Shown here: in pieces, positions 48,268 through 63,501 of the stretch | Position numbering within the stretch: position 1 is the first letter of the stretch | Layout: the number at the start of each line of letters is the position of its first letter | DNA from: Candidatus Bipolaricaulota bacterium | GTDB taxonomy: Bacteria; Bipolaricaulota; Bipolaricaulia; UBA7950; UBA9294 | NCBI GenBank assembly: GCA_023132915.1 | Contig: JAGLXM010000075.1 | Span: 1,165-65,164 of the forward strand | Direction: 5' to 3' | Length of the DNA: 64,000 bases | Program-made: the position numbers and the translations under genes | Notes under the pieces: model-generated | Seen by the model: the letters and a program-made list of their open reading frames with translations, nothing else | Told to the model about the DNA's origin: nothing | Database searches by the model: none

Positions 48268-49575
48268 ATGGGAATGGTTGGCCGGCTGACTCGCTTCAAA
48301 CTGCGAAAGACTCCCGCAGATATCGGGCGAGCATTACGCTTTGTCATCTCCGATGCGGGTGCGAACGTTCCCTACTACCGTACCGCGTTCGAGGGAGCGG
48401 GGGTCGTACCGGCGCAGGTCAAATGCGTCGAGGATCTTCCCAGGTTCCCAATGACGGACCGGGACAGGCTCCTCGCGAGCGGACATGAAGGGCACCTTAG
48501 GCGCGGTGTCGATCGGCAATCCCTGTTCAAGAGACACACATCTGGAACGTCAGGGACGCCGATCACAGTGTATATGAATCGTGCAGAATCTCTGTTCCGA
48601 AAAGCGTCTTTGATCGACTCGTTCCGCCGCAACGCCAGGCTCGGATTCCCGATGGCGTTGGTCGATGTCGGGGGGGATCGCGAGTCAGACTCAAAGGACA
48701 TTGTGCAGCGACTCGGGCTCGTCAACGTTGTTCGAATTGTACGATCTCTCCCGATGGGAGAGCAGGCCGAGCGCCTTCGCCAAGTGAATCCGACCGTAAT
48801 CGAGGGAAGACCGAGCATGCTGTGCGTACTGGCGCAGGAGCTTTCGAGGCAGGGCATCGATTCAGTGCGCCCCAAGCTGGTGGTTTCCTTCGCTGAGGTG
48901 TTGTATCCACACGTGAGGAAGTTGCTCCAAGACACGTTCTCCTGCCGTGTGGCCGACTACTACAACTGCCAAGAAGTTGGGAACATCGCCTGGCAGTGCC
49001 CCGAAATCCCCGACCGAATGCATGTGAACCCGGCTACGGTCGTACTGGAGGTGGTCGACGAACAGGGTGAGCCCGCCCCCTGCGGGAAGGAGGGCCGCGT
49101 CCTTGTCACGAACCTCTACAACACCACCATGCCGTTCATCCGCTATGAGATTGGAGATCGGGGGGCGCTCTTAGAATCGACGAGGTGTTCTTGCGGCTTC
49201 GTTGGCCAGACGATGCATCTCATCGGGGGTCGGGACGAGGATTTCTTCGTGTTGCCAGACGATCGAGAGATCTCCCCGAGGGTCATCTATGCGATTGTGG
49301 TACATGGTTCGCCCCTACACGGCTTGGGCAATGAGTTTTACCGTGCCGTACGGGCGTTCCAGATCGTACAACAGGAGCGCGATCTGATTGTCGTCAGGGT
49401 GGTTCCCGGACCGGCCTACTCCCGAGGCCTTTGGAAGAATTTGGATTCAAACTTCAAGGCGCTTCACCCTTCCATGCGCGTGCAGGTCGTGGAGGTGGAG
49501 GATCTACATCCGGGGCCCGGAGGCAAATTCAAACAGGTTTTGAGTCGGGTAGCGCGCGCTAGAGGCACATCGTGA
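48268..49575 (+). CDS. CapK/phenylacetate-CoA ligase-family adenylate-forming enzyme (copy 2)
   Basis: 435 aa, collinear with copy 1. ..HTSGTSGTPITVYMN.., ..YYNCQEVGNIAWQC.., ..PGGKFKQVLS. Confidence 0.8.
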   Translation: MGMVGRLTRFKLRKTPADIGRALRFVISDAGANVPYYRTAFEGAGVVPAQVKCVEDLPRFPMTDRDRLLASGHEGHLRRGVDRQSLFKRHTSGTSGTPITVYMNRAESLFRKASLIDSFRRNARLGFPMALVDVGGDRESDSKDIVQRLGLVNVVRIVRSLPMGEQAERLRQVNPTVIEGRPSMLCVLAQELSRQGIDSVRPKLVVSFAEVLYPHVRKLLQDTFSCRVADYYNCQEVGNIAWQCPEIPDRMHVNPATVVLEVVDEQGEPAPCGKEGRVLVTNLYNTTMPFIRYEIGDRGALLESTRCSCGFVGQTMHLIGGRDEDFFVLPDDREISPRVIYAIVVHGSPLHGLGNEFYRAVRAFQIVQQERDLIVVRVVPGPAYSRGLWKNLDSNFKALHPSMRVQVVEVEDLHPGPGGKFKQVLSRVARARGTS

Positions 49576-49969: not shown

Positions 49970-51320
49970 ATGAAACTAGGTGCATGCGTAAGAAGGTTAG
50001 GGTTTTCCGTCTGGGATCGGCTGCATGGAGCTCCGGTCCACCACCACCTGGAAGAGTTAGAGCAAGCTCAGACCGTGAGTCCTGAGGAGCTTGAGCTCTG
50101 GCAGAGAGAGCGACTGTACGCTCTGCTATGTCACGCGCGGGACACGACTGACTTTTACCGCCAGCTCATCCCCCAGGACTTGTCGCCAGAAGAGAGCTTT
50201 AACGTCGTGCATGCCCTACCTCTCATGACCAAGGCTCAGATCAAAGCTGATCCTGAAGCCTTTATGGCAGGTGCCTTTCCCCCGCACGAGGCTCCATCGG
50301 GGCACCACCAGCGGGTTCACTGGGACGCCATTCGTGTTTTGGATGGACCGCAACCGGAGAGCTCGCGTGCGCGCGGAGATCTTGTACTTTGGACGCTGGG
50401 CGGGATATGAGATCGGAATGCGTCACTGCTACCTGCGCTACCTGTTTGGTCGGCCCAAGGGGTTCCTGCAACGCTGGCTAGAGAACCAACTCATCATTGA
50501 CACTACCTCCGTGGACGAGGCCAAGCTGGAGAAGATCCGGACCCTGCTCACTCGCTCAAGGACGCAAGTGCTTATCAGTCATCCCTCGGTGTTGAGCCTC
50601 CTAGCTCAGCACTGCCTCCGCCGGGGGATTCCTTTTCGGGATTTCTCTATGAGGGCGGTCATCTCCGTGGGGGAGCCCCTGCTGCCCGAAACTCGGGCCT
50701 CTATCGAGGACGCCTTCGGATGCCCGGTCTTCGATCGCTACAGCGCATGGGAGTTTGGGGTGATCGCGAGCGAGTGCGAGAGGCAACAATTGCATCTCAA
50801 CGCAGGAAGTCTGTACATCGAATTCCTCCCTCATGAGGGTCACCGCCCCACTGCGGCTGGAGAGCCTACTCGGTTCGTTGTGACCGACTTGTTCAACTAT
50901 GAAATGCCGTTCATCCGCTATGAGATTGAGGACGTAGTGGTGCTGGATAGAAAGCCTTGTCCCTGCGGTCGTAAGTCTCCCCTCCTCAAAGGCGGTCTAC
51001 GGCCGTGGGTCGATCAGATCACGTCCCCAAACGGCGCATGGCTGGACCCGCTGGGCATCGAAGCCATGTTGTGAGATCTCCATGAGATCCGACAGTTTCA
51101 GTTCGTCCAACAGTCTCAGAGTAGCTATATGATCAAGGTGGTCCCGGACGAAGGGTTTGACGAAGCGGACGTTCAGAAGATTGTGCGCCGTTATCAAGAG
51201 GTGTTGGGTCCGGAGGCGATGATTAAGGTCGAGGAGGTGAATGAGATTCTGCCGTTACCCTCGGGCAAGTGGTCCTATATCCGCTCTGAGGTCCGAGAGG
51301 CACAGATCGATGAGACTTAG
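49970..51320 (+). pseudogene. CapK/phenylacetate-CoA ligase-family gene (copy 3, different subtype) broken by at least two frameshifts
   Basis: Three successive frames carry the N-terminus (MKLGACVRRLGF..TDFYRQLI..), the core (..TTSGFTGTPFVFWMD..FDRYSAWEFGVIASEC..PCPCGRKSPLLK..) and the C-terminus (..FQFVQ..IKVEEVNEILPLPSGKWSYIRSE). Confidence 0.7.
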
Positions 51321-51525: not shown

Positions 51526-51708
51526 ATGAGCTCTCAGCTATTCCTTAAGCGAGGGTTAGACTTTACTATAAGTTTTGTCGGGCTCATCCTCCTTGCTATG
51601 CCCTTTGCCATCATCGCTCTAGCGATCAAGCTCGACTCCAAGGGCCCAGTTTTCTTCAGGCAGGAGGGGACCAGAGGTTGTCTTGAGCATGGTGACTTGC
51701 TATCTTAG
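51526..51708 (+). pseudogene. 5' stub (about 46 codons) of a third PglC-type phosphoglycosyltransferase copy
   Basis: MSSQLFLKRGLDFTISFVGLILLAMPFAIIALAIKLDSKGPVFFRQE matches the N-termini of 44434.. and 52117.., then diverges to a stop. Confidence 0.8.
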
Positions 51709-51746
51709 AGGTGCCGTTAAATCATCGGCCTAAAGGAGGGAGCAAT

Positions 51747-52013
51747 ATGCCCTTGAAATTGATTAGAACCGAGAGAACAAGCGAGGAAGATCTGCAGAGG
51801 TTCAAGGCGGATCAGGAGGACTTTGAGTGGCTTGTCAGGCATTCGCGAGAGATTGAAGAGCAGTCTAAGGGGAAATATATCGCTGTCGTGAATAAAGAGG
51901 TCTTTGTGGGAGATAGCTTTGAGGAAGCGGAGCAGAAGGCTAAGGCAAAATATCCGGAGCGCGATTCCTATGTGGAATTCATCCCGCTGAAGCCGCGGGT
52001 GATGGTTCTATGA
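51747..52013 (+). CDS. Small hypothetical protein (DUF5678-like pattern)
   Basis: 88 aa from ATG 51747 (RBS aaaggaggg). ..WLVRHSREIEEQSKGKYIAVVNKEVFVGDSFEEAEQKAKAKYPERDSYVEFIP.. . Family assignment is from memory of the pattern only. Confidence 0.45.
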   Translation: MPLKLIRTERTSEEDLQRFKADQEDFEWLVRHSREIEEQSKGKYIAVVNKEVFVGDSFEEAEQKAKAKYPERDSYVEFIPLKPRVMVL

Positions 52014-52120
52014 TCTTCCACGGCCGATACCGTGTCGCCATCTTCGACAGGGGCAAAGATGATGTGATCCTGCTCGACCATCCGGATAGCTACCGAATCG
52101 AACGCTCTCTTGAAAGATGA
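52010..52120 (+). CDS. 36-codon ORF coupled by ATGA overlaps to both neighbours
   Basis: MIFHGRYRVAIFDRGKDDVILLDHPDSYRIERSLER. ATG 52010 overlaps the upstream stop, and its TGA 52118-52120 overlaps ATG 52117 of the sugar transferase. Confidence 0.3.
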   Translation: MIFHGRYRVAIFDRGKDDVILLDHPDSYRIERSLER

Positions 52121-52776
52121 AGGGTTCCATCGGTTTGCCTGTTCAGCTAATTCTAAAACGGCTTGTCGATATCCTGCTAAGCCTCATTGGGCTTATCCTC
52201 TTGATTGTTCCCTTCGCTGTGATCGCCCTGGCGATGAAGCTTGACTCCAGGGGCCCAGTGTTCTTCCGGCAAGAGCGTGTGGGAAAAGATGGCAGGGTAT
52301 TTAAGCCTTGGAAGTTCCGCACGATGGTTGTTGGGGCGGTGAAGCAAGGGCTGGGTTACAACATCGCTCAGGGTGATCCGCGGATTACTAAGGTTGGGCG
52401 GTTCTTGAGAAGCTGGGGGGTAGATGAACTTCCCCAGCTCATCAATGTGTTGAAGGGCGAGATGAGCATCGTCGGCCCGCGGCCGACCTTAAAATACCAG
52501 GTCGAGAGGTACAACGACTTCCAACGCAAACGTCTTCTGGTCAAGCCTGGGATCACCGGCTGGGCCCTGATCCATGGGCGAAATCTTTTGACCTGGGAGG
52601 AGCGAATCAAATACGACGTCTGGTATGTAGATCATCGGACAATCTGGCTTGATCTTTGGGTCATGCTCAAGACGTTATGGGTGGTGCTGATCAAGCGGGA
52701 AGGGGTCTACAGCTCAGAAGGGATCAATGACCCATTTGTGACACCGCCTCAGGAAGGGCCACCCCATGATGTGTAA
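52117..52776 (+). CDS. Undecaprenyl-phosphate sugar phosphotransferase, small monotopic PglC/WbaP-C type (intact copy)
   Basis: 219 aa. ..GPVFFRQERVGKDGRVFKPWKFRTM.., ..DELPQLINVLKGEMSIVGPRP.., ..KPGITGWA.. . Confidence 0.9.
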   Translation: MKGSIGLPVQLILKRLVDILLSLIGLILLIVPFAVIALAMKLDSRGPVFFRQERVGKDGRVFKPWKFRTMVVGAVKQGLGYNIAQGDPRITKVGRFLRSWGVDELPQLINVLKGEMSIVGPRPTLKYQVERYNDFQRKRLLVKPGITGWALIHGRNLLTWEERIKYDVWYVDHRTIWLDLWVMLKTLWVVLIKREGVYSSEGINDPFVTPPQEGPPHDV

Positions 52777-53179
52777 CTCAAAGGGTTTCCATTCCTGGTC
52801 CAATGTAAAATTGCTGAAGAGGCTAGGGGAAAAGGAGATTTCGGCTCTTTATGGTGCCTGGTCTATATAGTTTGTATAATAGATTCGGTAGTTTGCGACA
52901 GAGGCGGTGTGCGATGGGTAAATGTAAGGTTCATAAGTTAGGTTTAGATTCATGAAGGTTAATAGAGGAGTACGTCGCGTGGGGCGTAGAAGAGAAGACT
53001 AAAGCACAAGTGGCAAAGGACTTTGAGTTTGTCCTGGATGTGTGATATGTGGAGCATCTACCATTGCGAGGGGAGCCGCAGATGATCGCTCCGGCGGCCT
53101 GGAAAATCTGCAAGCGGGAAGGCATCGGTCAGCCGGAACACGCCACAATGTCAGAATTAAAGCAAACCCAATATTCATC

Positions 53180-53905
53180 ATGAGTACGCACAAAAAGCAA
53201 ATGTTCGCCCGGTTTCTTGATTTGAAATGGCCTGATATCAACTGTGATATGCATTTGCATACGACCAGAACTGATGGCAAAGCTGACATTAAGGACGTAA
53301 TGCATTACGCGGTGGAGCGGGGTCTGAGCCGAATTGCATTCACTGAACATGTGCGGAGAGATACTCAGTGGTTTCAGGAATTTACCCGCCAAGTTCGGGC
53401 TGAGCAAAAGGCGTATCCGCAGTTAGAGGTTCTGGTTGGTTGTGAAGCCAAAGCTCTCGATACGGAGGGCTTGTTGGATGCGACAGATAAGATACTCGCT
53501 GAGTGTGACATCGTGCTGGGTAGCGTACATCGCTTTCCGGATGGTCGGGGTGGATATATTGGTTTTTCCTCTCTGTCTCAGGAACACTTTGCGCAGATCG
53601 AGTTTGAGTTGGCAGTTGGATTGTTGGGTGCTGCTCCTATTGATGTATTGGCTCATCCTGGAGGTATGTACTTCAGGCGATACACTGATTTCCCCTCTGC
53701 TATGATGCGAGAGATTCTTAAACAAAGCCTAGAACGAGGAATTGCGGTAGAGATCAATACTTCCTACATCCAGAATCTACCTGGTTTTCTAAGGCTTTGT
53801 GTTGAAATTAATCCTTATGTATCGATTGGATCCGATATGCATCGTCTAGAACAACTTGGCGAGTGCCGAGATCGGTTGCATGCACACGGGGTCGGTTTCT
53901 CATGA
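53180..53905 (+). CDS. PHP-domain metal-dependent phosphoesterase (HisJ/histidinol-phosphatase-like)
   Basis: About 241 aa. ..CDMHLHTTRTDGK..IAFTEHV..GSVH..LAHPG.. PHP motifs. The track ORF starts at 53042; ATG 53180 is likely. Confidence 0.75.
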   Translation: MSTHKKQMFARFLDLKWPDINCDMHLHTTRTDGKADIKDVMHYAVERGLSRIAFTEHVRRDTQWFQEFTRQVRAEQKAYPQLEVLVGCEAKALDTEGLLDATDKILAECDIVLGSVHRFPDGRGGYIGFSSLSQEHFAQIEFELAVGLLGAAPIDVLAHPGGMYFRRYTDFPSAMMREILKQSLERGIAVEINTSYIQNLPGFLRLCVEINPYVSIGSDMHRLEQLGECRDRLHAHGVGFS

Positions 53906-54885
53906 GAGTGCTAGTTACTGGAGCTGGTGCGTTGTTGGGACAAGGGATTATCAAGAGCCTGCGTATGGCCCCTACCCAGTATGAAATTGTAGCTGTGGAC
54001 CCGGATCCACGCGCCGTAGGGTTATATTGGGCGGATAAAGCATGCCTGGTACCACTTGCTGCCAATCCGGGCTATTTTGACGGAATCTGCCAAGTTATTG
54101 ATCGCGAGCGGCCTGAGGCAGTACTAGTGGGAACAGATGTTGAGTTGATGGTGTTGGCGATTCACAAGTCACAGATTGAATCGGCCTACAATACGCGGGT
54201 AATCGTGAGTCCTCCAGATGTAATCCGAATCGCCGATGATAAATGGTTGACTTATGAGTTTCTGGCATCCAACGGATTTCCATATCCGCAATCGTCATTG
54301 TCTGATAGCATTTCCGGCCTATTGCGGCGGTGTGATTTCCCGTTGGTCGTGAAACCACGAGTGAGCGCTCGTTCTGTCGGAGTATACAAGGTAAGGAATG
54401 AGCAGGAGTTGAATCGGGCATTGAGCCAGGCTCAAAACCCCATTATCCAGGAGTGTGTTGCGACACCGGAAGAGGAGTACACTAGCGGAATTGTTGTCAC
54501 CGATGGGATCGTCAGGGCTATTGTAACAATGCGCCGTGACTTGCGGGATGGCAACACATATCGTGCCTATGTTGAACCCAACGCTCCTTTCAATGGTCTA
54601 TTAGCGAAGATTGCTGAGAAATTGGGTGGACTCGGCCCTCTTAACTTTCAATTTAGGCTTGATCGGGGTGTTCCGAAGATTTTCGAGATTAACGCTCGAT
54701 TCTCTGGAACTACCCCACTGCGTGCCTGTGCGGGTTTCAATGAGGTGGATAGTGTAGTTCGTCATTATGTATTGGGTGATCCGATTCCCGATCCTGCTTT
54801 ACGCCCTGTGGTAATATTCAGGTATTGGGATGAAATTGTCATCGAGCGAACTCAGTTGGCCGCTTTTTCTGATGAGCAGAGATAA
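53902..54885 (+). CDS. ATP-grasp domain protein (carbamoyl-phosphate-synthase L-chain-like ligase)
   Basis: About 327 aa. MRVLVTGAGALLGQG.., ..PLVVKPRVSARSVGVY.., ..IFEINARFSGTT.. . ATGA overlap with the PHP gene. Confidence 0.8.
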   Translation: MRVLVTGAGALLGQGIIKSLRMAPTQYEIVAVDPDPRAVGLYWADKACLVPLAANPGYFDGICQVIDRERPEAVLVGTDVELMVLAIHKSQIESAYNTRVIVSPPDVIRIADDKWLTYEFLASNGFPYPQSSLSDSISGLLRRCDFPLVVKPRVSARSVGVYKVRNEQELNRALSQAQNPIIQECVATPEEEYTSGIVVTDGIVRAIVTMRRDLRDGNTYRAYVEPNAPFNGLLAKIAEKLGGLGPLNFQFRLDRGVPKIFEINARFSGTTPLRACAGFNEVDSVVRHYVLGDPIPDPALRPVVIFRYWDEIVIERTQLAAFSDEQR

Positions 54886-54918
54886 GAGAAAGCCGAAGTT
54901 CGAGCGCATAACCCGTAT

Positions 54919-55836
54919 ATGAAGCGTATATTAGTCACGGGGGCTTCGGGTCTTCTTGGAGCCACAGTTGTCAAGACCTTGATAAATTCAGATTACTCTG
55001 TAGTGGCAGCGTGTCGTACGCTTGACTCAGCTCCTTTGGTTGGCGACATTCAGGTCATAACACTGGACCTGTTAAACGAAAAAGATTGGGCTAGTCTTCC
55101 TAAAAACATTGACGCAGTTGCACATTGTGCTGCATATGTCCCTACACGTTTCAACGACGCGGCAATGTCCGATACTCTGTGGAGAGTAAATGGTCTAGGA
55201 ACTCTTAAGCTCTTGAAATGGGCAAAAGAGAATGGCGTTGCTCAGTTCATCTACTGCTCATCCCACTCAATCTATCGGCGTCCAGCTCCCTATCCAATTA
55301 CTGAAGAACATTCTGTGTATCCATCCGGGGGGACAGCGTACTATGCTATAAGCAAACTTGCTGGTGAAGTCTTTGCAAGCTGTATGCGCAGTGATAGCTT
55401 TAATGTCTGTAGCCTGCGCATGCCCTCTTTGTATGGTGCGCGGATGAAAAAGTCCGGGGTGCTATATCACTTTGTGACTCAGGCACGTGCGGGTAAGACT
55501 ATCAAGATCATGTCGTCCCTCGATAGCCTATTCGATTTTCTCTATGTGCAAGACGCTGCCTATGCTATTCAGTTATGTCTTGCAAAATCTCCAAAGCAAG
55601 CTTATTACAATATCGGTTCTGGTAAAGCCATAACCCTCAAAGAATTGGCTGAAGCGTGTTGGGCAATCTTTGCACCGCACTCCCCCGTCAGTATATTTAT
55701 TGAAGCGGACGAGACCGCTCCGATATATAATGTCCTCGACATCTCTCGGGCACAGCGAGAGTTGGATTATCAGCCTGCTTTTGACATTTGGACTGGGTTG
55801 CGGGATATGAAGGCGCATCAAGAGGAGAAGCTTTGA
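54919..55836 (+). CDS. NAD-dependent epimerase/dehydratase (SDR)
   Basis: 305 aa. ILVTGASGLLG and YAISKLA (YxxxK). Confidence 0.8.
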   Translation: MKRILVTGASGLLGATVVKTLINSDYSVVAACRTLDSAPLVGDIQVITLDLLNEKDWASLPKNIDAVAHCAAYVPTRFNDAAMSDTLWRVNGLGTLKLLKWAKENGVAQFIYCSSHSIYRRPAPYPITEEHSVYPSGGTAYYAISKLAGEVFASCMRSDSFNVCSLRMPSLYGARMKKSGVLYHFVTQARAGKTIKIMSSLDSLFDFLYVQDAAYAIQLCLAKSPKQAYYNIGSGKAITLKELAEACWAIFAPHSPVSIFIEADETAPIYNVLDISRAQRELDYQPAFDIWTGLRDMKAHQEEKL

Positions 55837-55976
55837 TGTCAGTTATCCCTATGTTTTCCCCTGCTCTAATCGACGTCGAGATCACAGCAGCTATCAGCTC
55901 GCTAAGGGAAAGATTTGCCCAAACGGTTAAGTTCATCGGCGCCGGGGCAGCTGTTAGCGATGGATATTCCCAATAA
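55836..55976 (+). pseudogene. 5' remnant (about 30 codons) of an ancestral DegT-type aminotransferase
   Basis: MSVIPMFSPALIDVEITAAISSLRE.. parallels VNIPLARPDIAKEEIEAVVAVLRT.. of 56827... Its ATG overlaps the SDR stop (TGATG). Confidence 0.55.
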
Positions 55977-56018
55977 TGTCATGAGAATTGCGAAGGATGC
56001 CCTGCCTTGTAGGCGGGG

Positions 56019-56291
56019 ATGGATTCGCCAGTCCTGGCTGAACTCTCAATGTCCAGCCAGGACTGTAAGCTTCTTAGGGAGGTGTTCAACAGCATATCAG
56101 CGGGTGTGCTGTTTCGGGAGTTCCCTGAGCTTCAGGATCAGCTTTGGAGGGATTGGTACTTTGTTCGCACGGTGGGAGATGACGCTACCGCGGAGATTAT
56201 CCGCAACTGCACTCAGTATCATCAAGAGCGAGTAAGAGATTCCCGCGCAATTGGAATTCTTCTGGTCTTAGGTCATGGTTTTGCCTTTTGA
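56019..56291 (+). CDS. Hypothetical ORF, no recognisable family
   Basis: 90-aa ORF in junction DNA between DegT remnants. It may be non-coding. Confidence 0.2.
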   Translation: MDSPVLAELSMSSQDCKLLREVFNSISAGVLFREFPELQDQLWRDWYFVRTVGDDATAEIIRNCTQYHQERVRDSRAIGILLVLGHGFAF

Positions 56292-56376
56292 AGCCCCGCC
56301 CTGTGGGCGGAGAGCTTCACTTGTGCTTGCTAATACTACTTCTTCGATGCTAAAATAGCTTTGAGGATGGTGATCA

Positions 56377-56703
56377 ATGATGCTCAAGACCTATGCGGCT
56401 GAGCTAGAAGAGCGGTAGATCGAGGCGCTAAAGCCTCTCTCCCAGGAGACGAAGATTCCCCAGGCGGAGCTTTTGCGCCAGGCGGTCGGATTTCTTGTTG
56501 GAGCGATAGCAGAGCAATTAGGAGCGTTTGGAATTTATCAAACGACTCGATACGAGTTTAATCCGTTGCGGCTAAAGATGCGAATTGTGTTCGTTCCAGA
56601 ATTATTCATAGATGTCTTCTATAGCGCAAGGACGCAGAGGATCGATTTTGCACTTATCGAGGAGACAGAGAGGATTTTCGGCGTTGATAACCTCAATGGG
56701 TAG
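56377..56703 (+). pseudogene. Degenerate small TA-like gene(s): RHH/CopG-like N-terminus plus beta-rich part, with in-frame TAG codons
   Basis: MMLKTYAAELEER*IEALKPLSQETKIPQAELLRQAVGFL.. (RHH-like), then ..RLKMRIVFVPELFIDVFYSARTQRIDFALIEETERIFGVDNLNG*YRYPFGG. The family of the second part is uncertain. Confidence 0.4.
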
Positions 56704-56826
56704 TATCGTTATCCATTTGGAGGAGTTCTAGCGGCATCAGGCTATACAGGAGTCAGCCTCGGAAGAGATTTTCTCAGAAATCAAGAAGGTTGCTGTGGAG
56801 CAGGGTCTTTTGAGAGAGGGGTCGAG

Positions 56827-58041
56827 GTGAATATTCCACTAGCTAGACCGGATATCGCCAAGGAGGAGATCGAGGCGGTCGTTGCTGTCCTCAGAACGCC
56901 CCACCTTGCTCTCGGGCCTAAGCTAAAGGAGTTCGAGGATGCGATCGCTGAATATTCTGGCGTTCGTTATGTCGTGGCCGTGAACAGTGGCACGAGTGCC
57001 CTGCACCTTATCATTCGCGCACTGGGGATCGGTGCCGGTGATGAGGTGATCACTACCCCGTTCAGCTTTATCTCCTCGTCCAATTGCATCCTTTTTGAAA
57101 GGGCAAAGCCGGTCTTTGTCGATATCGAGCCGAAGACTCTCAACATCGATCCCGAACGGATCGAGGAGGCGATCACACCAAAGACCAAGGCGATCCTGGC
57201 CGTTGATGTGTTTGGCCATCCGGCCGACTGGCCGGCGCTGGAGCAACTGGCAGAGAGACACAACGTGTTGTTGGTCGAGGATTCCGCGGAAGCGCTTGGG
57301 TCTAAGTTGGACGGGAAGCGTTGTGGCTCGTTCGGTCGGGCCGGAATCTTCGGCTTTTACCCCAATAAGCAGATCACGACCGGCGAAGGCGGTATCATTG
57401 TTACCGACGATGCGGAGCTCGCGGCTCTGTGTCGATCCATGGCCAACCAGGGCCGCGGAGATGGAGACGCCTGGCTAAGCCACGTTCGTTTGGGCTACAA
57501 CTACCGCATGGACGAGATGTCGGCCGCATTGGGACTGGCGCAGCTTTCCCGGATTGAGGAGATCGTTGCCGCCCGCGCCCAGGTGGCTGTGTGGTACGCG
57601 GAGGCGTTGGAGCGGGTTGACGGAGTTAAGGCGCCCTTTGTGGCGCCGGACGTAACGATGAGTTGGTTTGTGTACGTAGTTCGGCTCGATGAGGGATTCA
57701 CTCGCGAGGATCGAGATCGGATCTTAAAAGGCCTCCGCGATGCGGGCATCGAGTGTCGCAATTACTTCCCCCCAATTCATTTGCAGCCGTTCTATCGAGA
57801 AGCCTTGGGGACTAAGGAAGGGGACTTTCCGATCACCGAATCCGTAGCCGCACGGACGATCGCTTTGCCATTCTACAATAAACTCACTAAGGATGAAGTA
57901 AGCTACGTCGTGGACAATCTAGCCGATATACTGAAATGTTACCACTTGGGGGATGTAGCAAATCTCAAATCGCTACTACACCCCCCGAGGGCGCAGAGAT
58001 CGCAGAGAACGCGGAATCCGCAAAGAAGTCGTCAAATCTAG
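56827..58041 (+). CDS. DegT/DnrJ/EryC1/StrS-family sugar aminotransferase (PglE-like) with a repeat-derived C-terminal tail
   Basis: 404 aa, GTG start. ..NSGTSALHL.., ..FGFYPNKQITTGEGGIIV.. . The last ~30 aa (..GDVANLKSLLHPPRAQRSQRTRNPQRSRQI) are encoded by palindromic/low-complexity DNA. Confidence 0.85.
   Translation: MNIPLARPDIAKEEIEAVVAVLRTPHLALGPKLKEFEDAIAEYSGVRYVVAVNSGTSALHLIIRALGIGAGDEVITTPFSFISSSNCILFERAKPVFVDIEPKTLNIDPERIEEAITPKTKAILAVDVFGHPADWPALEQLAERHNVLLVEDSAEALGSKLDGKRCGSFGRAGIFGFYPNKQITTGEGGIIVTDDAELAALCRSMANQGRGDGDAWLSHVRLGYNYRMDEMSAALGLAQLSRIEEIVAARAQVAVWYAEALERVDGVKAPFVAPDVTMSWFVYVVRLDEGFTREDRDRILKGLRDAGIECRNYFPPIHLQPFYREALGTKEGDFPITESVAARTIALPFYNKLTKDEVSYVVDNLADILKCYHLGDVANLKSLLHPPRAQRSQRTRNPQRSRQI
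57945..57992. repeat. 48-nt palindromic element (single unit) in the DegT 3' end
   Basis: cttgggggatgtagcaaatctcaaatcgctactacaccccccgagggc. It shares both ends (CTTGGGGG.TGTAG.AA and ACTACACCCCCCGAGGGC) with the 90-nt element at 62746-62835. Confidence 0.75.
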
Positions 58042-58057
58042 GTTTGAGAGACCGTGA

Positions 58058-58282
58058 TTGAGTAGGCTGGAGAACAAGGTGGTGGTCATTGTGCCTAAGG
58101 TTGAAGTCAATCTGGACCAATTAGCAAAGGCTTTGGAGGAGTTGTCCCCCGGTGAGCTTGAAACTCCGGAGATTCGGTTCAACCCCGAATTGGGAGAGAA
58201 ACTGAAGGACCGGTGGGCCAAGGCCAAGGAGGAACTTGCGAAGGGGAGAACCCTATCGAAGAGGGACTTGCTTGCGCAGTGA
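58058..58282 (+). CDS. Small hypothetical protein upstream of the DUF4258/DUF2283 pair
   Basis: 74-aa ORF with a non-ATG start, charged helical C-terminus (..KLKDRWAKAKEELAKGRTLSKRDLL). No family recognised. Confidence 0.3.
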   Translation: MSRLENKVVVIVPKVEVNLDQLAKALEELSPGELETPEIRFNPELGEKLKDRWAKAKEELAKGRTLSKRDLLAQ

Positions 58283-58377
58283 TAGTTCATACAAGACACA
58301 AAAATGGTGAAAATGCAAAGCTTACCCGGGAGGACGACAGAGATCACGGAGATAATGCTGAGGAGGCAACGCAACGC

Positions 58378-58653
58378 ATGAAGCCGGGGCCGCTTCGGAA
58401 ATTTTGCATCAAGGATCACGCTCGTTTTCAGATGAAACGGCGCCAGATTTCCGAAGAGCAGGTGCGTCAGGTACTGACAGCTCCCCAGCAGATTATTGAG
58501 AAGGAAGGCAGCCGTTATATCTATCAATCTAAGCTCTTCTTGCCAAACTCAGGTAAAGAGCGCCTCTTTCGTGTTGTGGTAGACACTAGGCACGAGCCGG
58601 TTGAAGTTGTTACCGTGTATCGCACGAGTAAAATAGCCAAGTATTGGAGGTAA
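58378..58653 (+). CDS. DUF4258-like toxin-type small protein
   Basis: 91 aa from ATG 58378 (RBS gaggagg). ..IKDHARFQMKRRQISEEQVRQVL..RLFRVVVDTRHEPVEVVTVYRTSK.. . Confidence 0.65.
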   Translation: MKPGPLRKFCIKDHARFQMKRRQISEEQVRQVLTAPQQIIEKEGSRYIYQSKLFLPNSGKERLFRVVVDTRHEPVEVVTVYRTSKIAKYWR

Positions 58654-58655
58654 AT

Positions 58656-58853
58656 ATGAAGCTTGTCTACGATCGGGATTTAGACATTCTGACGGTAATT
58701 CTCAAGGAGATGTCCGTGGAGGAGAGCGACGAGGTAAAAGAAGGCATCATTCTGGATTATGATGCCCACGGTAACCTTGTCGCGATGGAGATCCTAGACG
58801 CATCCCGACTCATTGCTCAGCCCGCGGGCGTTGAGTTTCAGTTGGCTAAATAG
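58656..58853 (+). CDS. DUF2283-like small protein (partner of DUF4258)
   Basis: 65 aa. MKLVYDRDLDILTVILKE..EGIILDYDAHGNLVAMEILDAS.. . Confidence 0.7.
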   Translation: MKLVYDRDLDILTVILKEMSVEESDEVKEGIILDYDAHGNLVAMEILDASRLIAQPAGVEFQLAK

Positions 58854-58920
58854 CCTTCAGCTAGCTTAGAGCAGTTCTACCGCTTTTCGGAGGTTGGAGA
58901 ACAGAAGAGGAACCCAACCT

Positions 58921-59037
58921 TGTGTCGGCACAATCGTCTTACCCTTCTACAACAGTCTGATCAAGAAGGAGAGCGAATATGTTGTGGAGAGTCTGGCCGG
59001 CATAGTAAAATCAATCGGCCAAAGGAGGTGGAGATGA
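58921..59037 (+). pseudogene. 3' remnant (about 35 codons) of an ancestral DegT-type aminotransferase
   Basis: ..TIVLPFYNSLIKKESEYVVESLAGIVKSIG.. parallels ..TIALPFYNKLTKDEVSYVVDNLADILK of 56827..58041. Its TGA (59035-59037) overlaps the hicB ATG 59034 (ATGA). Confidence 0.6.
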
Positions 59038-59267
59038 CAAGAAGGTTCAAGATCATTGTCCAAAGGAGCGAGGAGGGCTACGTAGCTTATCCTCTGGGGT
59101 TAAAGGGCGTTGTGGTGGGCGATGGAGATACATTCGAAGAAGCCCTGGAAAACGTCAAGTCGGCAATTAGCTTTCATATTGCGACGTTCAGAGACGAAGT
59201 GTTAGAAGAACTCGCCGAGCCTGAGAACATCTACGTTACGGAGACAGAAGTCGTTTTAGATGTCTAA
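59034..59267 (+). CDS. hicB: HicB-family antitoxin (UPF0150-like)
   Basis: 77 aa. ..FKIIVQRSEEGYVAYPLGLKGVVVGDGDTFEEALENVKSAISFHI.. . RBS aaaggaggtg. Confidence 0.7.
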   Translation: MTRRFKIIVQRSEEGYVAYPLGLKGVVVGDGDTFEEALENVKSAISFHIATFRDEVLEELAEPENIYVTETEVVLDV

Positions 59268-59499
59268 GTTTTCCCGAGATGCGCCTAAGAGGAAGGTCCT
59301 TAAAGCTTTCAAGGAGCTGAGGTTTGAGATCGTTAGAGAGGCTGACCACATTGCCCTCAGGCGACATAACCCTGATGGGTCCACGACGCCGATGACCATC
59401 CCCAACCATCGAACCTATAAAAGCAGCACCCTGCGGGAGATCTTGACTCAAGGCAGAATTCCCAGGGATGACTTTCTAACGGCTTACTACAAATCATGA
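59260..59499 (+). CDS. hicA: HicA-family toxin (YcfA-like)
   Basis: 79 aa. ..KRKVLKAFKELRFEIVREADHIALRRHN..MTIPNHRTYKSSTLREILTQGRIPRDDF. Overlaps hicB by 8 nt and the capD-like start by ATGA. Confidence 0.7.
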   Translation: MSKFSRDAPKRKVLKAFKELRFEIVREADHIALRRHNPDGSTTPMTIPNHRTYKSSTLREILTQGRIPRDDFLTAYYKS

Positions 59500-61352
59500 A
59501 TATCGCAAAACGATTGTTCCAAGAGACGCGCCGAACGCGGGCTATGTTTTTCCTGCTTGCGGATATTGCTCTCGTTGCTCTCTCCATGACGGTGGCCTTC
59601 CTCTTAAGGTTTGAGGGACGAATCCCTTCACAATACATGGAGGACCTTTGGATTCTAATCTTGATCGCCATGGCAGTGAAGATCCCCGTCTTTTACCTCC
59701 AGAGGCTCTATCATATCAGTTGGTCTTACGTAAGTGTTCGGGAACTAATGTCGGTCTTTAAGGGGGGCTTCTACAGCTCCCTTCTTCTGGGGACGGCCCT
59801 CTTCATCCTGAAGGCCACCCCTAAGTTTATCGGCTTTCCTAGATCTATCCTGTTCATCGATTTCTTTCTGACGGTTACCTTAATTGGGGGCTTCCGCGCG
59901 GCCAAGCGGGTCTATCTGCAGTTTGTCAAAAGGTTCCCCATGGAGGGGCGAAGGACCCTGATCGTCGGTGCCGGGGATGCGGGGGAGCAGCTCCTGCGGA
60001 GTATGCTCAAGTCCGGCCATAGCGATTACCTTCCCGTGGGATTCGTCGATGACGATCCGGCCAAGCTTTCGACCTCAATCCAAGGGATCAAGGTATTGGG
60101 TACAAGAAAGCAGATTCCCCAACTTGTAGAAGCTTATGACATTGAAGAGCTGTTGATTGCTATACCGTCTGCCTCCTCCAAGGTCATCAAGGAGACGGTT
60201 GAGATAGGCAGGAAGGCCAAGGTAAAGTCGATGAAGATCCTCCCTGATATAAGCAAGATCCTTTCTGGTAGCGTGGGCTTAGCCAATGTGCGAGAGGTTA
60301 GGTTAGAGGATCTTTTGGGGAGGGAGCCGGTCAAGATCGATACCCAGGAGATCAAGAGCTATTTGAAAGATAAAACCGTTCTGGTCACCGGAGCGGCCGG
60401 TTCCATCGGCTCGGAGCTCTGCCGTCAGATCGCCAAGTTCCAGCCTCGAAAGCTCCTTATGTTGGATCATGAGGAGACGGGGCTCTTTAAGATCGAGCGG
60501 GAGCTTAAAGAAAAATTTCCCGGGATGGAGCGTATTGCGATATTAGGGGATATAAGGGATGAGGGGAAGATGGAGAGAGTCTTCACCCAATACAAGCCAG
60601 AAGTGGTCTTTCATGCTGCTGCTTACAAGCATGTGCGGATGATGAAGGAGCACCCCGATGAGGCGGTGAAGAATAACATCTTTGGCACAAAAGTCCTGGG
60701 GGAGACCGCGATCACGGCCGGGGCAGAGAAGTTCATCTTGATCTCCACGGATAAGGCGGTCAACCCGGTTGGAGTGATGGGGATGTCCAAGCGGGCCGCG
60801 GAGATGGTCATCCAAGACCTCAACCAGAGAGGGGTGACCAGGTTCTCGGCGGTGAGATTCGGGAACGTCCTGGGCAGCCGCGGGAGCGTGATCCCGATCT
60901 TTAGGGAGCAGATCAAGAAACGTGGTCCGGTGACGGTGACCGATTCCCGGATGCGCCGTTACTTCATGATGACCTCTGAGGCTGTCCTTCTGGTCTTACA
61001 GGCGGGAGCCATAAGCGAAGGGGGGGAGATCTTCGTTTTGGATATGGGGGAGCCGGTGAACATCCTGGACCTCGCCCGGGAGATGATCAGGTTGTCAGGA
61101 TATGAGCCGGATACGGATATCCCCATCACCATTACCGGCCCCGGTGAGGACGAGAAGCTCTTTGAGGATATCCTGACGGCGGAGGAGGGTACCGAGGCCA
61201 CTAAGTATGAGCAGATCTTCATTGCCAGGATGAACGCTGGGCTCTCTTCAGCGGAACTGTCGAGGCACTTAGAAACCCTTGAGAAGCTGGTCGAACAAGA
61301 GAAAGACGCGGGTGAGATCAAAGAGGCGCTTAGGGGGATAGTGGGGGGCTAG
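59496..61352 (+). CDS. Membrane-anchored polysaccharide biosynthesis protein CapD/WbpM/PglF-like (UDP-HexNAc 4,6-dehydratase)
   Basis: 618 aa. Four N-terminal TM helices, then ..VLVTGAAGSIGSEL.., ..AAAYKHV.., ..STDKAVNP.., ..VRFGNVLGSRGSVIP.. . Confidence 0.9.
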   Translation: MNIAKRLFQETRRTRAMFFLLADIALVALSMTVAFLLRFEGRIPSQYMEDLWILILIAMAVKIPVFYLQRLYHISWSYVSVRELMSVFKGGFYSSLLLGTALFILKATPKFIGFPRSILFIDFFLTVTLIGGFRAAKRVYLQFVKRFPMEGRRTLIVGAGDAGEQLLRSMLKSGHSDYLPVGFVDDDPAKLSTSIQGIKVLGTRKQIPQLVEAYDIEELLIAIPSASSKVIKETVEIGRKAKVKSMKILPDISKILSGSVGLANVREVRLEDLLGREPVKIDTQEIKSYLKDKTVLVTGAAGSIGSELCRQIAKFQPRKLLMLDHEETGLFKIERELKEKFPGMERIAILGDIRDEGKMERVFTQYKPEVVFHAAAYKHVRMMKEHPDEAVKNNIFGTKVLGETAITAGAEKFILISTDKAVNPVGVMGMSKRAAEMVIQDLNQRGVTRFSAVRFGNVLGSRGSVIPIFREQIKKRGPVTVTDSRMRRYFMMTSEAVLLVLQAGAISEGGEIFVLDMGEPVNILDLAREMIRLSGYEPDTDIPITITGPGEDEKLFEDILTAEEGTEATKYEQIFIARMNAGLSSAELSRHLETLEKLVEQEKDAGEIKEALRGIVGG

Positions 61353-61377
61353 CAATTGCGGTTTACTTGATGTAGGG

Positions 61378-61497
61378 GTTCATTGAGTTCGTAGGGTTCA
61401 TTGGGTTCGTTGAGTTCATTGAGTTCGTAGGGTTTATGGGGTTCGTTGAGTTCATTGAGTTCGTAGAGTTGGTGGAGTTCATTGGGTTCGTAGGGTT
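61378..61497. repeat. Tandem array of about 13 degenerate 9-mers (GTTCRTWGR)
   Basis: GTTCATTGA GTTCGTAGG GTTCATTGG GTTCGTTGA GTTCATTGA GTTCGTAGG GTTTATGGG GTTCGTTGA GTTCATTGA GTTCGTAGA GTTGGTGGA GTTCATTGG GTTCGTAGG. Followed by a GAGTCGG-type heptamer module at 61507-61545. Confidence 0.9.
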
Positions 61498-61670
61498 AAA
61501 AACACTGTCAGGAGTCGGGAGTCCAGAGTCGAGTGCCGAGATTCAATGTTCACTAGATTTTCAAGCTAGATAGAAGGATTTGAACTAGGGAAACTGGACG
61601 TGGTAAGATAAGTTTCCAGGGATGGTAGAGATTAGGATAGAATATCGTGAATCGGCGGAGGTGGGAAAGT

Positions 61671-62583: not shown

Positions 62584-63501
62584 ATGGGCGGGCTGGCGAT
62601 CGTAGTGGGGTTCGGTTCCGGGATTTTGCTTGCGGTCGCGTTGGTAAGCTTCTTTCATGTTTTCCCTTCGGTAAACCTAGTCGTCTTGCTGGCGGTGCTC
62701 TCTACCGTCCTGTTGGCTGGGCTGATCGGGATAGTGGATGACTTGCTTGGGGGGTGTAGTAAGTCGAATCCAGTTACTACACCCGCCTCGGAGAGTGTAG
62801 TAAGTTCCAAACCGACTACTACACCCCCCGAGGGCATGCGGCAGTGGATGAAGGCACTGTTGCCGGTGTTCGCGGCGTTACCGTTGATGGCGGTGCGGGC
62901 GGGGCATACGTTCATGAAGATTCCGTTTGTAGGGACGCTCAACTTCTGGATCTTTTACCCCTTGGTGTTGGTTCCCGTGGGGGTGACTGTCGTAGTAAAC
63001 GCGGTGAACATGCTCGCTGGGTTCAACGGCGTGGAGGTGGGACTGGGAATCGTCGCAATAGGAAGCCTATCGATCATCGCCGCCATCCTGCATGAGACCA
63101 CCGCGCTGATCCTTCTTCTCTCCGGCCTGGGCGCGCTTCTTGGCATTATCTACTTCAATTGGTATCCGGCGAGGATCCTGGTGGGAGACGTGGGAACGCT
63201 TTCGATTGGGGCCATCATCGCCACCGCGGTGATCGTGGGTAACTTCGAGACAGCGGGTGTGATCGTGATCATCCCATATGCGATCGATTTTCTGTTCAAA
63301 GCAGTGCACCGCTTCCCTACGAGTTTCGGCGAGCTCCGTGAGGATGGGAAACTGCATTGTCCTGCGGAAGGGCCTGTGGGGTTGGGGCAGTTCATCATGA
63401 AGGTAACGCGTGGAATTCACGAGCGGACGCTAGTCGTTACGTTGATGGGGATTGAGGCGATTTTCGGGCTAGTAGCTATTGCGTTGTATGTGTGGAGGTG
63501 A
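62584..63501 (+). CDS. Glycosyltransferase family 4 polyprenyl-phosphate HexNAc-1-P transferase (MraY/WecA/WbpL family). The first TM segment is separated by an in-frame TAG, and it carries a 90-nt in-frame palindromic insert.
   Basis: ..GIVDDLLG.., ..NAVNMLAGFNGVE.., ..LVGDVGTLSIGA.. . The in-frame upstream segment 62452-62565 (MIVAPFFVSLLVSFFCVPILITRLKRAGISGSDIHKSS) ends at TAG 62566-62568. Confidence 0.8.
   Translation: MGGLAIVVGFGSGILLAVALVSFFHVFPSVNLVVLLAVLSTVLLAGLIGIVDDLLGGCSKSNPVTTPASESVVSSKPTTTPPEGMRQWMKALLPVFAALPLMAVRAGHTFMKIPFVGTLNFWIFYPLVLVPVGVTVVVNAVNMLAGFNGVEVGLGIVAIGSLSIIAAILHETTALILLLSGLGALLGIIYFNWYPARILVGDVGTLSIGAIIATAVIVGNFETAGVIVIIPYAIDFLFKAVHRFPTSFGELREDGKLHCPAEGPVGLGQFIMKVTRGIHERTLVVTLMGIEAIFGLVAIALYVWR
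62746..62835. repeat. 90-nt double palindromic element inserted in frame in the GT4 transferase CDS
   Basis: Hairpin 1: gggtgtagtaa (62752-62762) with ttactacaccc (62774-62784), a perfect 11-bp stem. Hairpin 2: gtgtagtaagt (62795-62805) with actactacac (62815-62824). Encodes GGCSKSNPVTTPASESVVSSKPTTTPPEG. Confidence 0.85.

Follow-up and report, generated by a model that had tools for sequence, protein, structure and literature searches.

A probable field of recombination scars around one working DegT aminotransferase gene in a Candidatus Bipolaricaulota glycan operon

Integrative elements are known that rebuild the gene they enter, e.g., phage 21 and e14 in icd, SXT in prfC, and islands in the 3′ ends of tRNA genes. 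In O-antigen and capsule loci, gene remnants are found at recombination junctions. Sequential displacement that leaves orphaned gene ends has been described at Rhs, CDI, and T6SS effector-immunity loci (Kirchberger et al., 2017; PMC5361080). [quoted passage not shown] (2009) for the displacement of Rhs C-termini. Recombination of this kind during natural transformation is treated in PMC3240628 and in three studies cited in PMC5361080 (de Vries and Wackernagel, 2002; Prudhomme et al., 2002; Meier and Wackernagel, 2003).

The locus described here lies in a stretch of 64,000 nucleotides (the window) from Candidatus Bipolaricaulota, in a glycan operon for a cell-surface sugar. The operon is of the tightly packed BacTr ... 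DegT-CapD type, in which the neighbors of DegT overlap or abut it, and in the window the DegT (PglE-like) aminotransferase gene sits amid live and dead toxin-antitoxin (TA) cassettes. The CapD gene served as the anchor for finding relatives in the population (31 CapD-anchored loci; sequences compared are numbered with an L), and all of the data come from metagenome assemblies in which strains are mixed. The features given below between 54919 and 61352 are on the forward strand. We read 55.8–59.0 kb as a scar field that recombination has left around a single functional gene, rather than as one gene hollowed out by one cassette, and put the probability of this at about 0.6. At the same level of confidence, the scars would reflect repeated out-of-register or homology-facilitated illegitimate recombination combined with selection for one intact copy of each gene, as in Rhs and T6SS arrays. 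A sequence-only reading of this DNA had instead proposed that one cassette was dropped into an original SDR-DegT-hicB arrangement and that, as far as its author knew, no self-compensating insertion of this kind had been described for glycan loci; the second point is not supported, given the displaced gene ends already known at Rhs, CDI, and T6SS loci.

As in those arrays, a conserved part of the gene would act as the homology anchor while incoming modules push the old end and its neighbor outward, and the orphaned gene ends form strings without an integrase. The pattern of a displacement array is found here as one 3′ end-stub in the window, two to three serial stubs in relatives, and mosaic DegT alleles. 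The locus differs in that a metabolic sugar aminotransferase, rather than a polymorphic toxin, supplies the displaced ends, that both the 5′ and 3′ sides have stubs, and that the TA modules carried along are generic and functionally unrelated to DegT. It shares with homology-facilitated illegitimate recombination a single homologous anchor, a single illegitimate joint, and foreign DNA trapped by a conserved gene. Unlike in the natural transformation cases, the duplicated target pieces are kept, which needs a crossover distal to the joint, and it is from end products, rather than from a reconstructed donor-recipient pair, that we infer the mechanism of recombination, the filtering by selection, and the sequence of events. 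In the elements of icd, prfC, and tRNA genes, as here, the incoming DNA supplies a gene end, the original end becomes a stub, and tandem insertions give serial stubs; unlike in those elements, we found no integrase and no fixed attachment site at this locus, and the cassettes are about 0.5–1.3 kb. A mosaic glycan locus with old junctions marked by fragments of pseudogenes and by IS remnants is also what O-antigen and capsule loci look like, but the remnants here are systematically the ends of the adjoining intact gene and bracket TA cassettes.

The intact DegT/PglE-like sugar aminotransferase gene (56827–58041) belongs to its family by a PF01041 match of 416 bits against a cut-off of 19.8 (E 1.8e−124; aa 9–365, profile positions 2–359 of 360). 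It had been called full-length but divergent. It is full-length, but more than 120 homologs at 63–83% identity, many of them from Bipolaricaulota, show that it is not divergent. The homologs, even at 83% identity, cover only about aa 1–372 of the resident protein. Residues 1–370 are native; because the TAG stop was lost at a junction, translation continues through 34 foreign codons. L121 retains the native end (...ADILK-TAG). In an alignment with L115, L097, and L121, this recombination junction falls within the DegT stop codon at 57937/57938, with AAAT to its left and GTTACC to its right; the cassette block downstream has its left edge here. The same junction occurs in L115 and L097, and BLASTN homology to L097 starts exactly at 57938. 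This is the one junction that was inspected for microhomology, and none was seen. The gene is also a mosaic relative to L096 and L115, with the 5′ 400–480 nt 92.5% identical and the remainder 64–70%. Just inside the block is a REP-like palindromic insertion of about 42 nt (57944–57986; GGGGG-TGTAG...CTAC-TACA-CCCCCC; fold −9.4 kcal/mol, z −2.5). Two more copies of the palindrome are located at 62749–62829.

The block continues with a 74-aa ORF (58058–58282) that has no Pfam or NCBIfam match but is kept at 78–95% in relatives and travels with the block (L097, L099, L115, and L121). Next are a DUF4258 gene (58379–58653; PF14076, E 7e−13) and a DUF2283 gene (58656–58853; PF10049, E 1.3e−16), which have 91–100% aa identity to counterparts in L095, L097, L099, L108, L115, and L121. 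Both are intact and adjacent, and by their sequence are a putative toxin-antitoxin-like pair. The small ORF and the pair had been noted in the sequence-only reading, and both are there. So is the DegT C-terminal remnant it had reported to end at 59037. This displaced 3′ end (the C stub; 58866–59037, about codons 323–372) aligns in C-terminal register to the family protein HMM (positions 343–371, E 4.8e−5), matches the DNA HMM at 58926–59002 (E 5.3e−6), and is 63% identical to the resident DegT over 27 aa (BLASTP E 3e−9; window-wide TBLASTN E 2.5e−5). By eye, it extends upstream in another frame to about 58866 (near codon 323), with a frameshift near 58915. In L096 it aligns with the 3′ end of an intact DegT followed by hicB, in L100 with a DegT 3′ piece followed by hicB, and at least seven related contigs have a C stub of identical type. 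Its own stop codon is mutated, and its ORF runs into the hicB ATG. The ATGA coupling to hicB, which had been taken for a preserved ancestral trait, is thus derived; in L096, 11 nt separate the DegT stop from the hicB ATG.

Beyond the stub are a hicB-like gene (59034–59267; weak HicB Pfam match, E 0.006; 39% identity, E 4e−7, to the L096 HicB, itself a PF15919 match at E 3.9e−12) and a hicA-like gene (59260–59499), which together lie between the DegT end and CapD. The hicA gene is polymorphic, most relatives being without most of it. The right neighbor is a CapD/PglF-like polysaccharide biosynthesis gene (59496–61352; PF02719 and PF13727 on L001) that is 92–98% identical in L095–L110 and others. 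Relatives (L095, L097, L098/L099/L107, L108, L115, and L121) share the block with DUF4258, DUF2283, the C stub, and hicB at 91–97% nt identity, from either the junction (57938) or DUF4258 (58339) to 59233. These contigs carry other DegT alleles (64–73% aa), and neither the SDR gene nor the 46-aa ORF discussed below was found in any of them, within up to 6 kb of upstream sequence. Thus, the two "ends" in the window are not the product of one event.

End-stubs of DegT beside small cassettes are recurrent and stacked in series in relatives (L005, L008, L096, L097, L099, L115, and L121). In L005, a 105-nt direct repeat (84% identity) that starts at the ATG flanks an MJ0235/TumE module. DegT aa 1–95 lie upstream of RHH_3/Fic in L008. 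In L096, RelE/YafQ-like, HicB, TumE-like, and RHH_1 cassettes separate three N stubs, and there is also a C stub of the neighboring acetyltransferase; L099, L108, and L121 have two serial C stubs each. The pattern in the window is not confined to DegT: a BacTr stub (aa 7–53), DUF5678, and an intact BacTr follow one another at 51526–52776, and L109 is arranged likewise. We found no DegT stubs in 80 GTDB loci from other lineages, so stubs are no general trait of the DegT family. A local origin of the stubs is conceivable, as partial tandem duplicates of the resident DegT, with cassettes entering the redundant copy later as it decayed. The L005 stub is indeed nearest to its own DegT (80% aa vs. 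about 50% to other homologs), and stubs 2 and 3 of L096 are copies of each other. These two have the same internal deletion and show that stubs themselves can be copied. Duplication would, however, predict C pieces upstream or N pieces downstream of the intact gene, and none was seen; the C stub in the window is 63% identical to the resident gene but up to 70% to other family members, and divergence among the L096 stubs is uneven (75% vs. 47–48%). We consider local duplication unlikely.

The 5′ side bears on the proposal that an ancestral DegT between SDR and hicB lost its interior to a single 3-kb cassette, which brought a replacement DegT along with TA genes, and kept both of its ends. The left neighbor of the scar field is an SDR-type NAD-dependent epimerase/dehydratase gene (54919–55836; PF01370, E 5e−43), whose homologs (44–56% identity) in L004, L005, L007, L010–12, and L094 each directly precede a DegT. 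A 46-aa ORF (55836–55976), claimed as a DegT N-terminal remnant, starts at the SDR stop (TGATG), which is where the DegT of relatives begins. A real C stub adjoining hicB and the RHH_3 gene that accompanies DegT in L008 would also fit a single cassette. The 46-aa ORF fails all homology tests, however. It has no Pfam match, reaches E 24 against the resident DegT in BLASTP, and scores −2 bits with the family HMM, which ranks it 126th of the six-frame peptides in the window. With an N-terminal sub-HMM it scores 0.7–1.6 bits (shuffle p about 0.03–0.05), where the true N stubs of L005 and L008 score 44.8 and 42.6. There is no DNA-HMM match at 55836–55976, the ORF matches neither the other DegT types partnered with SDRs of this family nor the IS200 transposase, and when 1.84e9 proteins were scanned exhaustively with phmmer, a single repetitive protein was returned besides the ORF. 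Identity at the N end is 38% vs. 63% at the C end, while real pairs with a C-end identity of 55–65% average 65% at the N end (5th percentile 48%). From its position, 10 of 21 identities to P0157 in the right register, and its likeness to the true stubs of L005 and L008, the ORF may still be a DegT 5′ stub; the claim that it holds the first ~30 codons of one is not borne out, and of the two remnants only the C end aligns to the family significantly.

Between this ORF and the intact gene lie remnants of several elements. At 56082–56261 is the C-terminal part (aa 79–143 of about 143) of an IS200/IS605 Y1 transposase (TBLASTN E about 1e−23), 60–69% identical to the 143-aa PF01797 proteins P0244–P0248 and matching the Pfam Y1_Tnp model below threshold (19–20 bits). 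A complete IS200/IS605 element was considered at this position and rejected, as the HUH part of TnpA is missing. A promoter-like site found by consensus scan (56327–56356; TTGCTA-18-TAAAAT) sits where homology to L008 begins (BLASTN start 56325) and probably was the promoter of the dead RHH_3 module. That module is represented by an RHH_3 antitoxin pseudogene (56380–56560; aa 1–60 of 73; PF12651, E 9e−7) with a TAG at codon 14, a frameshift, and more stops. It is 71–73% identical in aa and 76% in nt to an intact ortholog in L008, which is there paired with a Fic toxin, and it is the nonsense-mutated RHH-like gene of the sequence-only reading. It leads into a TumE-family toxin pseudogene (56554–56824; aa 29–118 of 124; TBLASTN E 2.8e−27) with an in-frame stop and a frameshift, which abuts the DegT start. 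The two parts of this remnant are 67% and 55% identical to an intact 124-aa gene in L096 (3033–3407), nt identity across 56560–56855 is 74%, and in L005 TumE is likewise located just upstream of DegT. An intact type II TA module at 56380–56824 was rejected: both genes are pseudogenes and come from different modules, the front of RHH_3 being fused to the back of TumE.

The remnants of two different TA modules and an IS200 transposase indicate several events on the 5′ side, which a single cassette does not predict. Nor does it predict that the cassette and C stub are common to SDR-less contigs with other DegT alleles, or that BLASTN finds no counterpart of the PHP-ATP-grasp-SDR segment (52780–56325) in the 31 CapD-anchored loci. 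Because of this last result, the segment may itself be the newcomer. The window and L008 have only the RHH_3-DegT block in common, their SDR and ATP-grasp proteins being 27% and 33% identical. Uninterrupted SDR-DegT-CapD (L004 and L010–12) and DegT-hicB-CapD arrangements (L096, with L100 and L101 consistent but cut inside DegT) do exist, each in separate relatives. We regard a single cassette as quite unlikely. What stands of that proposal is a displaced DegT 3′ end beyond a cassette and an aminotransferase kept intact despite insertions, not two ends of one gene.

Site-specific mobile cassettes, each bringing its own DegT end and keeping the target functional, perhaps with hairpins as the substrate of an IS200/IS605-type Y1 transposase, would explain why one gene is targeted repeatedly in several contigs. 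They could also account for the TnpA remnant and for a REP-like hairpin at the 3′ junction, of which the window has further copies. On the N side, however, the joints fall at about codons 35, 79, 95, and 104, and C-side joints fall at about 323 and 333; they vary by locus, which makes a fixed attachment site unlikely. No recombinase domain, integrase, or intact transposase was detected in 55836–59500, no common sequence was found in the contents or borders of the cassettes in the loci inspected, and the hairpin is secondary, as it is missing from the same junction in L115. We give this explanation little credence.

An assembly artefact, i.e., chimeric joins of strain variants, is very improbable even though all of the sequences are short-read assemblies and the population is highly polymorphic at exactly this site: L001–L003, from two ENA assemblies with different sample accessions and one Logan run, are 100% identical to the window across all of their overlap with 54000–60000 (L001 over the entire range, and the only one to span the C stub, L002 to ~58513, and L003 to ~58104), the stubs are ~50–67% identical in nt to the intact gene, too diverged for repeat-induced misjoins, and the same stub-cassette units occur in many independent JGI contigs.

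In the reading we prefer, a scar field left by repeated recombination, diverged versions of the operon would recombine within the Bipolaricaulota population. One end of an exchange would anchor on conserved DegT or CapD homology and the other would join out of register, importing the small selfish cassettes, mainly TA pairs, that adjoined the donor DegT. The only survivors would be products with one complete copy of each gene. As the operon has no spare intergenic DNA and complete copies are needed, each event would leave a redundant part of DegT next to its cassette, taken from the 5′ end when upstream and from the 3′ end when downstream. Stubs and DegT ends would afterwards recombine by homology, which would stack, shuffle, or delete cassettes and make DegT mosaic. 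On the 3′ side of the window, one event would have joined the DegT stop codon (57937/8) to the small ORF, DUF4258, DUF2283, DegT codons ~323–372, and hicB; on the 5′ side, the RHH_3 front/TumE back fusion would have arisen, and the IS200 remnant and PHP-ATP-grasp-SDR would have been added. Classical homology-facilitated illegitimate recombination deletes the recipient DNA between anchor and joint, and thus the homologous crossover must lie inside DegT, distal to the joint. This is consistent with the mosaics, which are not tied to any single event. The insertion of an ATPase gene in L097 and L099 is without a stub, so a stub does not accompany each insertion, which counts against this reading.

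Tentatively, the ends of conserved glycan genes could be portable homology arms that carry TA cassettes from the polysaccharide locus of one lineage to that of another and accumulate them in arrays without a dedicated recombinase, though we think this doubtful. If true, the locus would be a recombinase-free, integron-like cassette trap, and addictive cassettes may help to fix newly imported glycan-gene alleles. BacTr would be such a gene as well as DegT.

The region between the SDR epimerase/dehydratase gene (54919-55836) and CapD (59496-61352) of the glycan operon holds intact genes and fragments of genes. A 46-aa ORF (55836-55976), whose ATG overlaps the SDR stop, is followed by an IS200-type Y1 transposase gene reduced to its C-terminal 45% (56082-56261), pseudogenes of an RHH_3 antitoxin (56380-56560) and a TumE-family toxin (56554-56824), and an intact, resident DegT gene (56827-58041). 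Downstream of DegT are a small conserved ORF (smORF; 58058-58282), DUF4258 (58379-58653), DUF2283 (58656-58853), a piece of a DegT 3′ end (58866-59037; hereafter a C stub, with N stub for a 5′ piece) and hicB and hicA (59034-59499). NCBI names both the SDR and the DegT proteins as Candidatus Bipolaricaulota, and the source of the window is a metagenome-assembled genome. Misassembly of the region is unlikely, because contigs from two ENA assemblies with different sample accessions and one Logan run (L001, L002, and L003) are 100% identical to the window wherever they overlap 54000-60000 (L001 entirely, L002 to ~58513, L003 to ~58104). The resident DegT, previously described as divergent, is not: it has more than 120 homologs at 63-83% identity, mostly in Bipolaricaulota/Acetothermia. 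GC content (55-63% versus 46-50%) was considered as a sign of a foreign DegT and was not used, since other genes in the window are equally variable. An Rfam scan of 55000-60000 gave zero matches.

The sequence-only reading held that an ancestral DegT survives as two ends around a replaced interior. The 3′ end is solid. The C stub aligns to resident DegT residues 344-370 at 63% identity (E 3e-9), is the sole significant match to the family HMM among six-frame peptides of the window beyond three full-length DegT genes (E 4.8e-5), and is recovered by a DNA profile of 78 DegT genes (E 5.3e-6). By eye, it extends upstream in another frame (LEQFYRFSEVGEQKRN versus HLQPFYREALGTKEGDF), which places its start at ~58866, just past the DUF2283 stop, with a frameshift present. 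Its ATGA overlap with hicB had been taken for an ancestral coupling, but in the related contig L096 the stop codon of an intact DegT comes 11 nt upstream of the hicB ATG. The window C stub has lost its stop, so that the ORF continues into the start of hicB. The hicA gene shows a presence/absence polymorphism (window 59233-59456): the window, L120, and L121 keep it whole, and most close relatives have just its last 22-25 codons, leaving hicB without a toxin partner.

A second junction lies at the 3′ end of the resident DegT. The native end, seen in the related contig L121, is ...ADILK-TAG. In the window, L115, and L097, a block starting GTTACC is joined after AAAT, within the stop codon, and the window DegT protein therefore carries 34 foreign read-through codons; DegT homologs cover only about aa 1-372. 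Contigs with a DegT just 64-73% identical to that of the window share the block from 57938 (the junction) or 58339 (DUF4258) to 59233 at 91-97% identity, and none of them has the SDR gene or the 46-aa ORF in its upstream sequence of up to 6 kb. This suggests that the cassette block (cassettes being small inserts, mostly toxin-antitoxin (TA) pairs) and the C stub are older than the present DegT allele and independent of events on the 5′ side. A 42-nt palindrome at ~57944-57986, absent from L115, is a secondary insertion at the junction. REP-like palindromes (GGGGGGTGTAGTAA...TTACTACACCC) occur here, in two tandem copies at 62749-62829, in frame within a Glycos_transf_4 (MraY/WecA-like) ORF (62584-63501) to which they add ~30 residues, and in further copies in L096, L097, and L099.

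A scan with CapD yielded 31 contigs, many 92-98% identical, whose structures were read from tblastn maps and ORFs. These contigs are population variants, and across them the DegT locus takes the general form [N stub-cassette]n-DegT-[cassette-C stub]m. L096 has, in order, an acetyltransferase, a DegT stub (aa 1-104), an acetyltransferase C stub (aa 157-229), a RelE/YafQ-like pair, a second DegT stub, HicB, a 118-aa ORF with a TumE-like gene, a third DegT stub, RHH_1 with a 152-aa partner, and then intact DegT, hicB, and CapD. L097 and L115 have a DegT stub (aa 1-79), the L096-type RHH_1 pair, an ATPase (L097 only), DegT, smORF-DUF4258-DUF2283, a C stub, hicB, and CapD. On the 3′ side, L098, L099, and L107 have DegT, the smORF, a C stub (aa 333-370), a four-helix-bundle gene, DUF4258-DUF2283, another C stub, hicB, and CapD; L108, whose contig is cut just 5′ of the first C stub, agrees with this order over the part it covers. 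L121 carries two cassette and C-stub units in series, the inner stub matching the terminus of the intact window DegT at 100% amino acid identity. The DegT end runs to hicB without a cassette in L096, L100, and L101 (L096 has the whole DegT; in the other two the contig begins inside it). Stubs 2 and 3 of L096 have one internal deletion in common, and the unit of stub 1-79 and RHH_1 pair recurs in L097, L099, and L115, with the same RHH_1 pair behind stub 3 of L096.

Relatives found via SDR and via DegT include loci with genuine N stubs. In L005 the order is SDR, a 53-aa ORF, an MJ0235/TumE module, and intact DegT; the first 35 residues of the ORF match the contig's own DegT at 80% identity, and a 105-nt direct repeat (84% identity) begins at the ATG of both copies. 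L008 has SDR, a decayed DegT copy (aa 1-95), RHH_3, Fic, and a DegT 83% identical to that of the window. Identity to the window is only 27% for its SDR and 33% for its ATP-grasp, so it shares the RHH_3-DegT block and not the left context. No DegT stubs were found in 80 GTDB loci with the same DegT family from many phyla; the family as such does not carry them. In Chloroflexota, a locus of this type (GT, BacTr, acetyltransferase, DegT, CapD; L036, 1292-3465) also has TA modules between genes and no stubs; its TumE pair is 64-71% identical to that of L005, and it also has a candidate HEPN/nucleotidyltransferase pair.

The 46-aa ORF, claimed as the N-terminal remnant in the window, does not reach significance: Pfam, BLASTP, family and DNA HMMs, and phmmer were negative or marginal. 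This half of the sequence-only reading thus fails the refutation test that the reading set for itself. Residues 4-24 can be aligned to family residues 3-23, with 10/21 identities to the family member P0157. Pfam gave no match, and the family protein HMM over six-frame peptides gave -2 bits (rank 126). With an N-terminal sub-HMM the ORF scored 0.7-1.6 bits, equalled by 3-5% of 5000 shuffles; the genuine stubs of L005 and L008 scored 44.8 and 42.6 bits. It was matched neither by nhmmer with the 78-gene DNA profile nor by tblastn with the DegT types that accompany the SDR family elsewhere (L004, L005, L010, L094), and an exhaustive phmmer search against 1.84 billion representatives returned itself and one repetitive protein only. 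From its position, and by analogy, derivation from a DegT 5′ end is conceivable at somewhat under even odds; if so derived, the ORF could be the end of a donor's DegT rather than the resident's. In real family pairs with a C-region identity of 55-65%, the N region averages 65% (5th percentile 48%), whereas the window pieces have N-region identity of 38% and C-region identity of 63%, which speaks against a common origin as ends of a single gene. A decayed 5′ half of the IS200 transposase was also considered for the ORF and rejected: composite translations did not lengthen the Y1_Tnp match, and five close TnpA homologs match 56082-56261 only.

Between the 46-aa ORF and the transposase remnant is a strong hairpin (56029-56065; arms of 12-15 bp, -13.5 kcal/mol, z -4.2) that may be an IS200/IS605 end. 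To the right of the remnant is a promoter-like site (56327-56356), where homology to L008 starts. The RHH pseudogene was confirmed as an RHH_3 ortholog of the L008 gene (76% nt, 71-73% aa). Its front is joined at ~56555 to the back of the TumE toxin, and the two remnants come from different modules, both dead. Fic, the partner of RHH_3 in L008, was rejected as the dead toxin, as the window has no Fic signal and the remnant is TumE-like. Uninterrupted arrangements exist in relatives. PHP-ATP-grasp-SDR-DegT-CapD occurs with nothing intervening in L004 and L010-12 (DegT likewise follows SDR in L007 and L094), and DegT-hicB-CapD occurs in L096. None of the 31 contigs of the CapD set has PHP-ATP-grasp-SDR between BacTr (the Bac_transf gene) and DegT; an acetyltransferase, a different ATP-grasp/SDR pair, or nothing takes this place. 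Window positions 52780-56325 had no blastn match in them, and the SDR segment may be a newcomer. The closest SDR relative (P0004, 68% identity) is on a contig that stops inside the SDR gene and so shows nothing of what follows it. An acetyltransferase stub was looked for at the SDR-block borders and none was found. Taken alone, the window is a modest result and an ordinary case of locus mosaicism. Besides one working aminotransferase it has one true and one unverified pseudogene fragment, two dead TA modules, an IS remnant, and a REP-like insertion.

Site-specific insertion of cassettes into DegT would resemble the action of integrative elements that restore the gene they enter (icd, prfC, tRNA genes). 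The end product is the same, but such elements need an integrase and a fixed site, which are absent at the DegT locus. Junction codons vary (N side: ~35, 79, 95, and 104; C side: ~323 and 333), domain scans of 55836-59500 found no recombinase, and cassette contents are heterogeneous, all of which argues against this explanation. A simple tandem duplication followed by insertion is argued against as well, since every N piece is upstream and every C piece downstream, with no case of the complementary part. The stub pattern fits an exchange of DNA among operon versions that have diverged. One of the crossovers would fall in conserved DegT or CapD sequence, in keeping with the mosaic DegT alleles that exist, and the other would be an out-of-register illegitimate joint. 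With genes that abut or overlap, the only viable products would be those that keep a complete copy of each gene, so that a redundant gene end would stay beside the carried-in DNA. The DegT(1-104)-acetyltransferase(157-229) join in L096 would be such a staggered joint; both genes are intact elsewhere in that locus. The stubs could then serve as homology for further unequal exchange, as stubs 2 and 3 of L096 and the recurring unit of stub 1-79 and RHH_1 may illustrate.

[quoted passage not shown] The recurrent serial arrays of stubs and TA cassettes that flank a biosynthetic gene on both sides in a Bipolaricaulota population are a variation on this known theme. Should the pattern hold, an uncultured phylum would diversify its surface-glycan operons by the displace-and-keep-stub process of polymorphic toxin loci, TA cassettes would ride on the conserved ends of a biosynthetic gene, and serial stubs would be a readable history of allele replacements. 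It would also explain why TA modules lie among the genes of tightly coupled operons and leave these operons unbroken, and would warn that short ORFs at such junctions are scars, not genes.

Further features lie elsewhere in the window and in relatives. At BacTr (51526-52776) the stub pattern recurs: a fragment of aa 7-53 (66% identity to the resident gene) precedes DUF5678, a 36-aa ORF, and intact Bac_transf; L109 (418-1956) has the BacTr stub-DUF5678-intact BacTr arrangement of the window. A 63-aa ORF from the gene caller (51129-51320) matches CapK_C and may be another displaced gene end, with CapK-like genes upstream at 45987-47294 and 48268-49575. In L119 (2891-3291), L099 (4457-4938), L121 (2180-2425), and L109 (5495-5898), the stretch from DegT to CapD includes a 23S_rRNA_IVP (four-helix-bundle) gene; it is usually split by insertions, and a spliced reconstruction scores E 1e-34 to PF05635. 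The match of the CapD of L120 (643-1293) and L121 (3364-4017) to the window breaks up after residue 91 into several pieces that overlap or are frameshifted, and the gene is either disrupted or mosaic there. Downstream of CapD in the window is a short tandem-repeat tract (61342-61500; minus strand NSTNSMNSTNP...), several diverged copies of which are found elsewhere in L098, L099, and L107.
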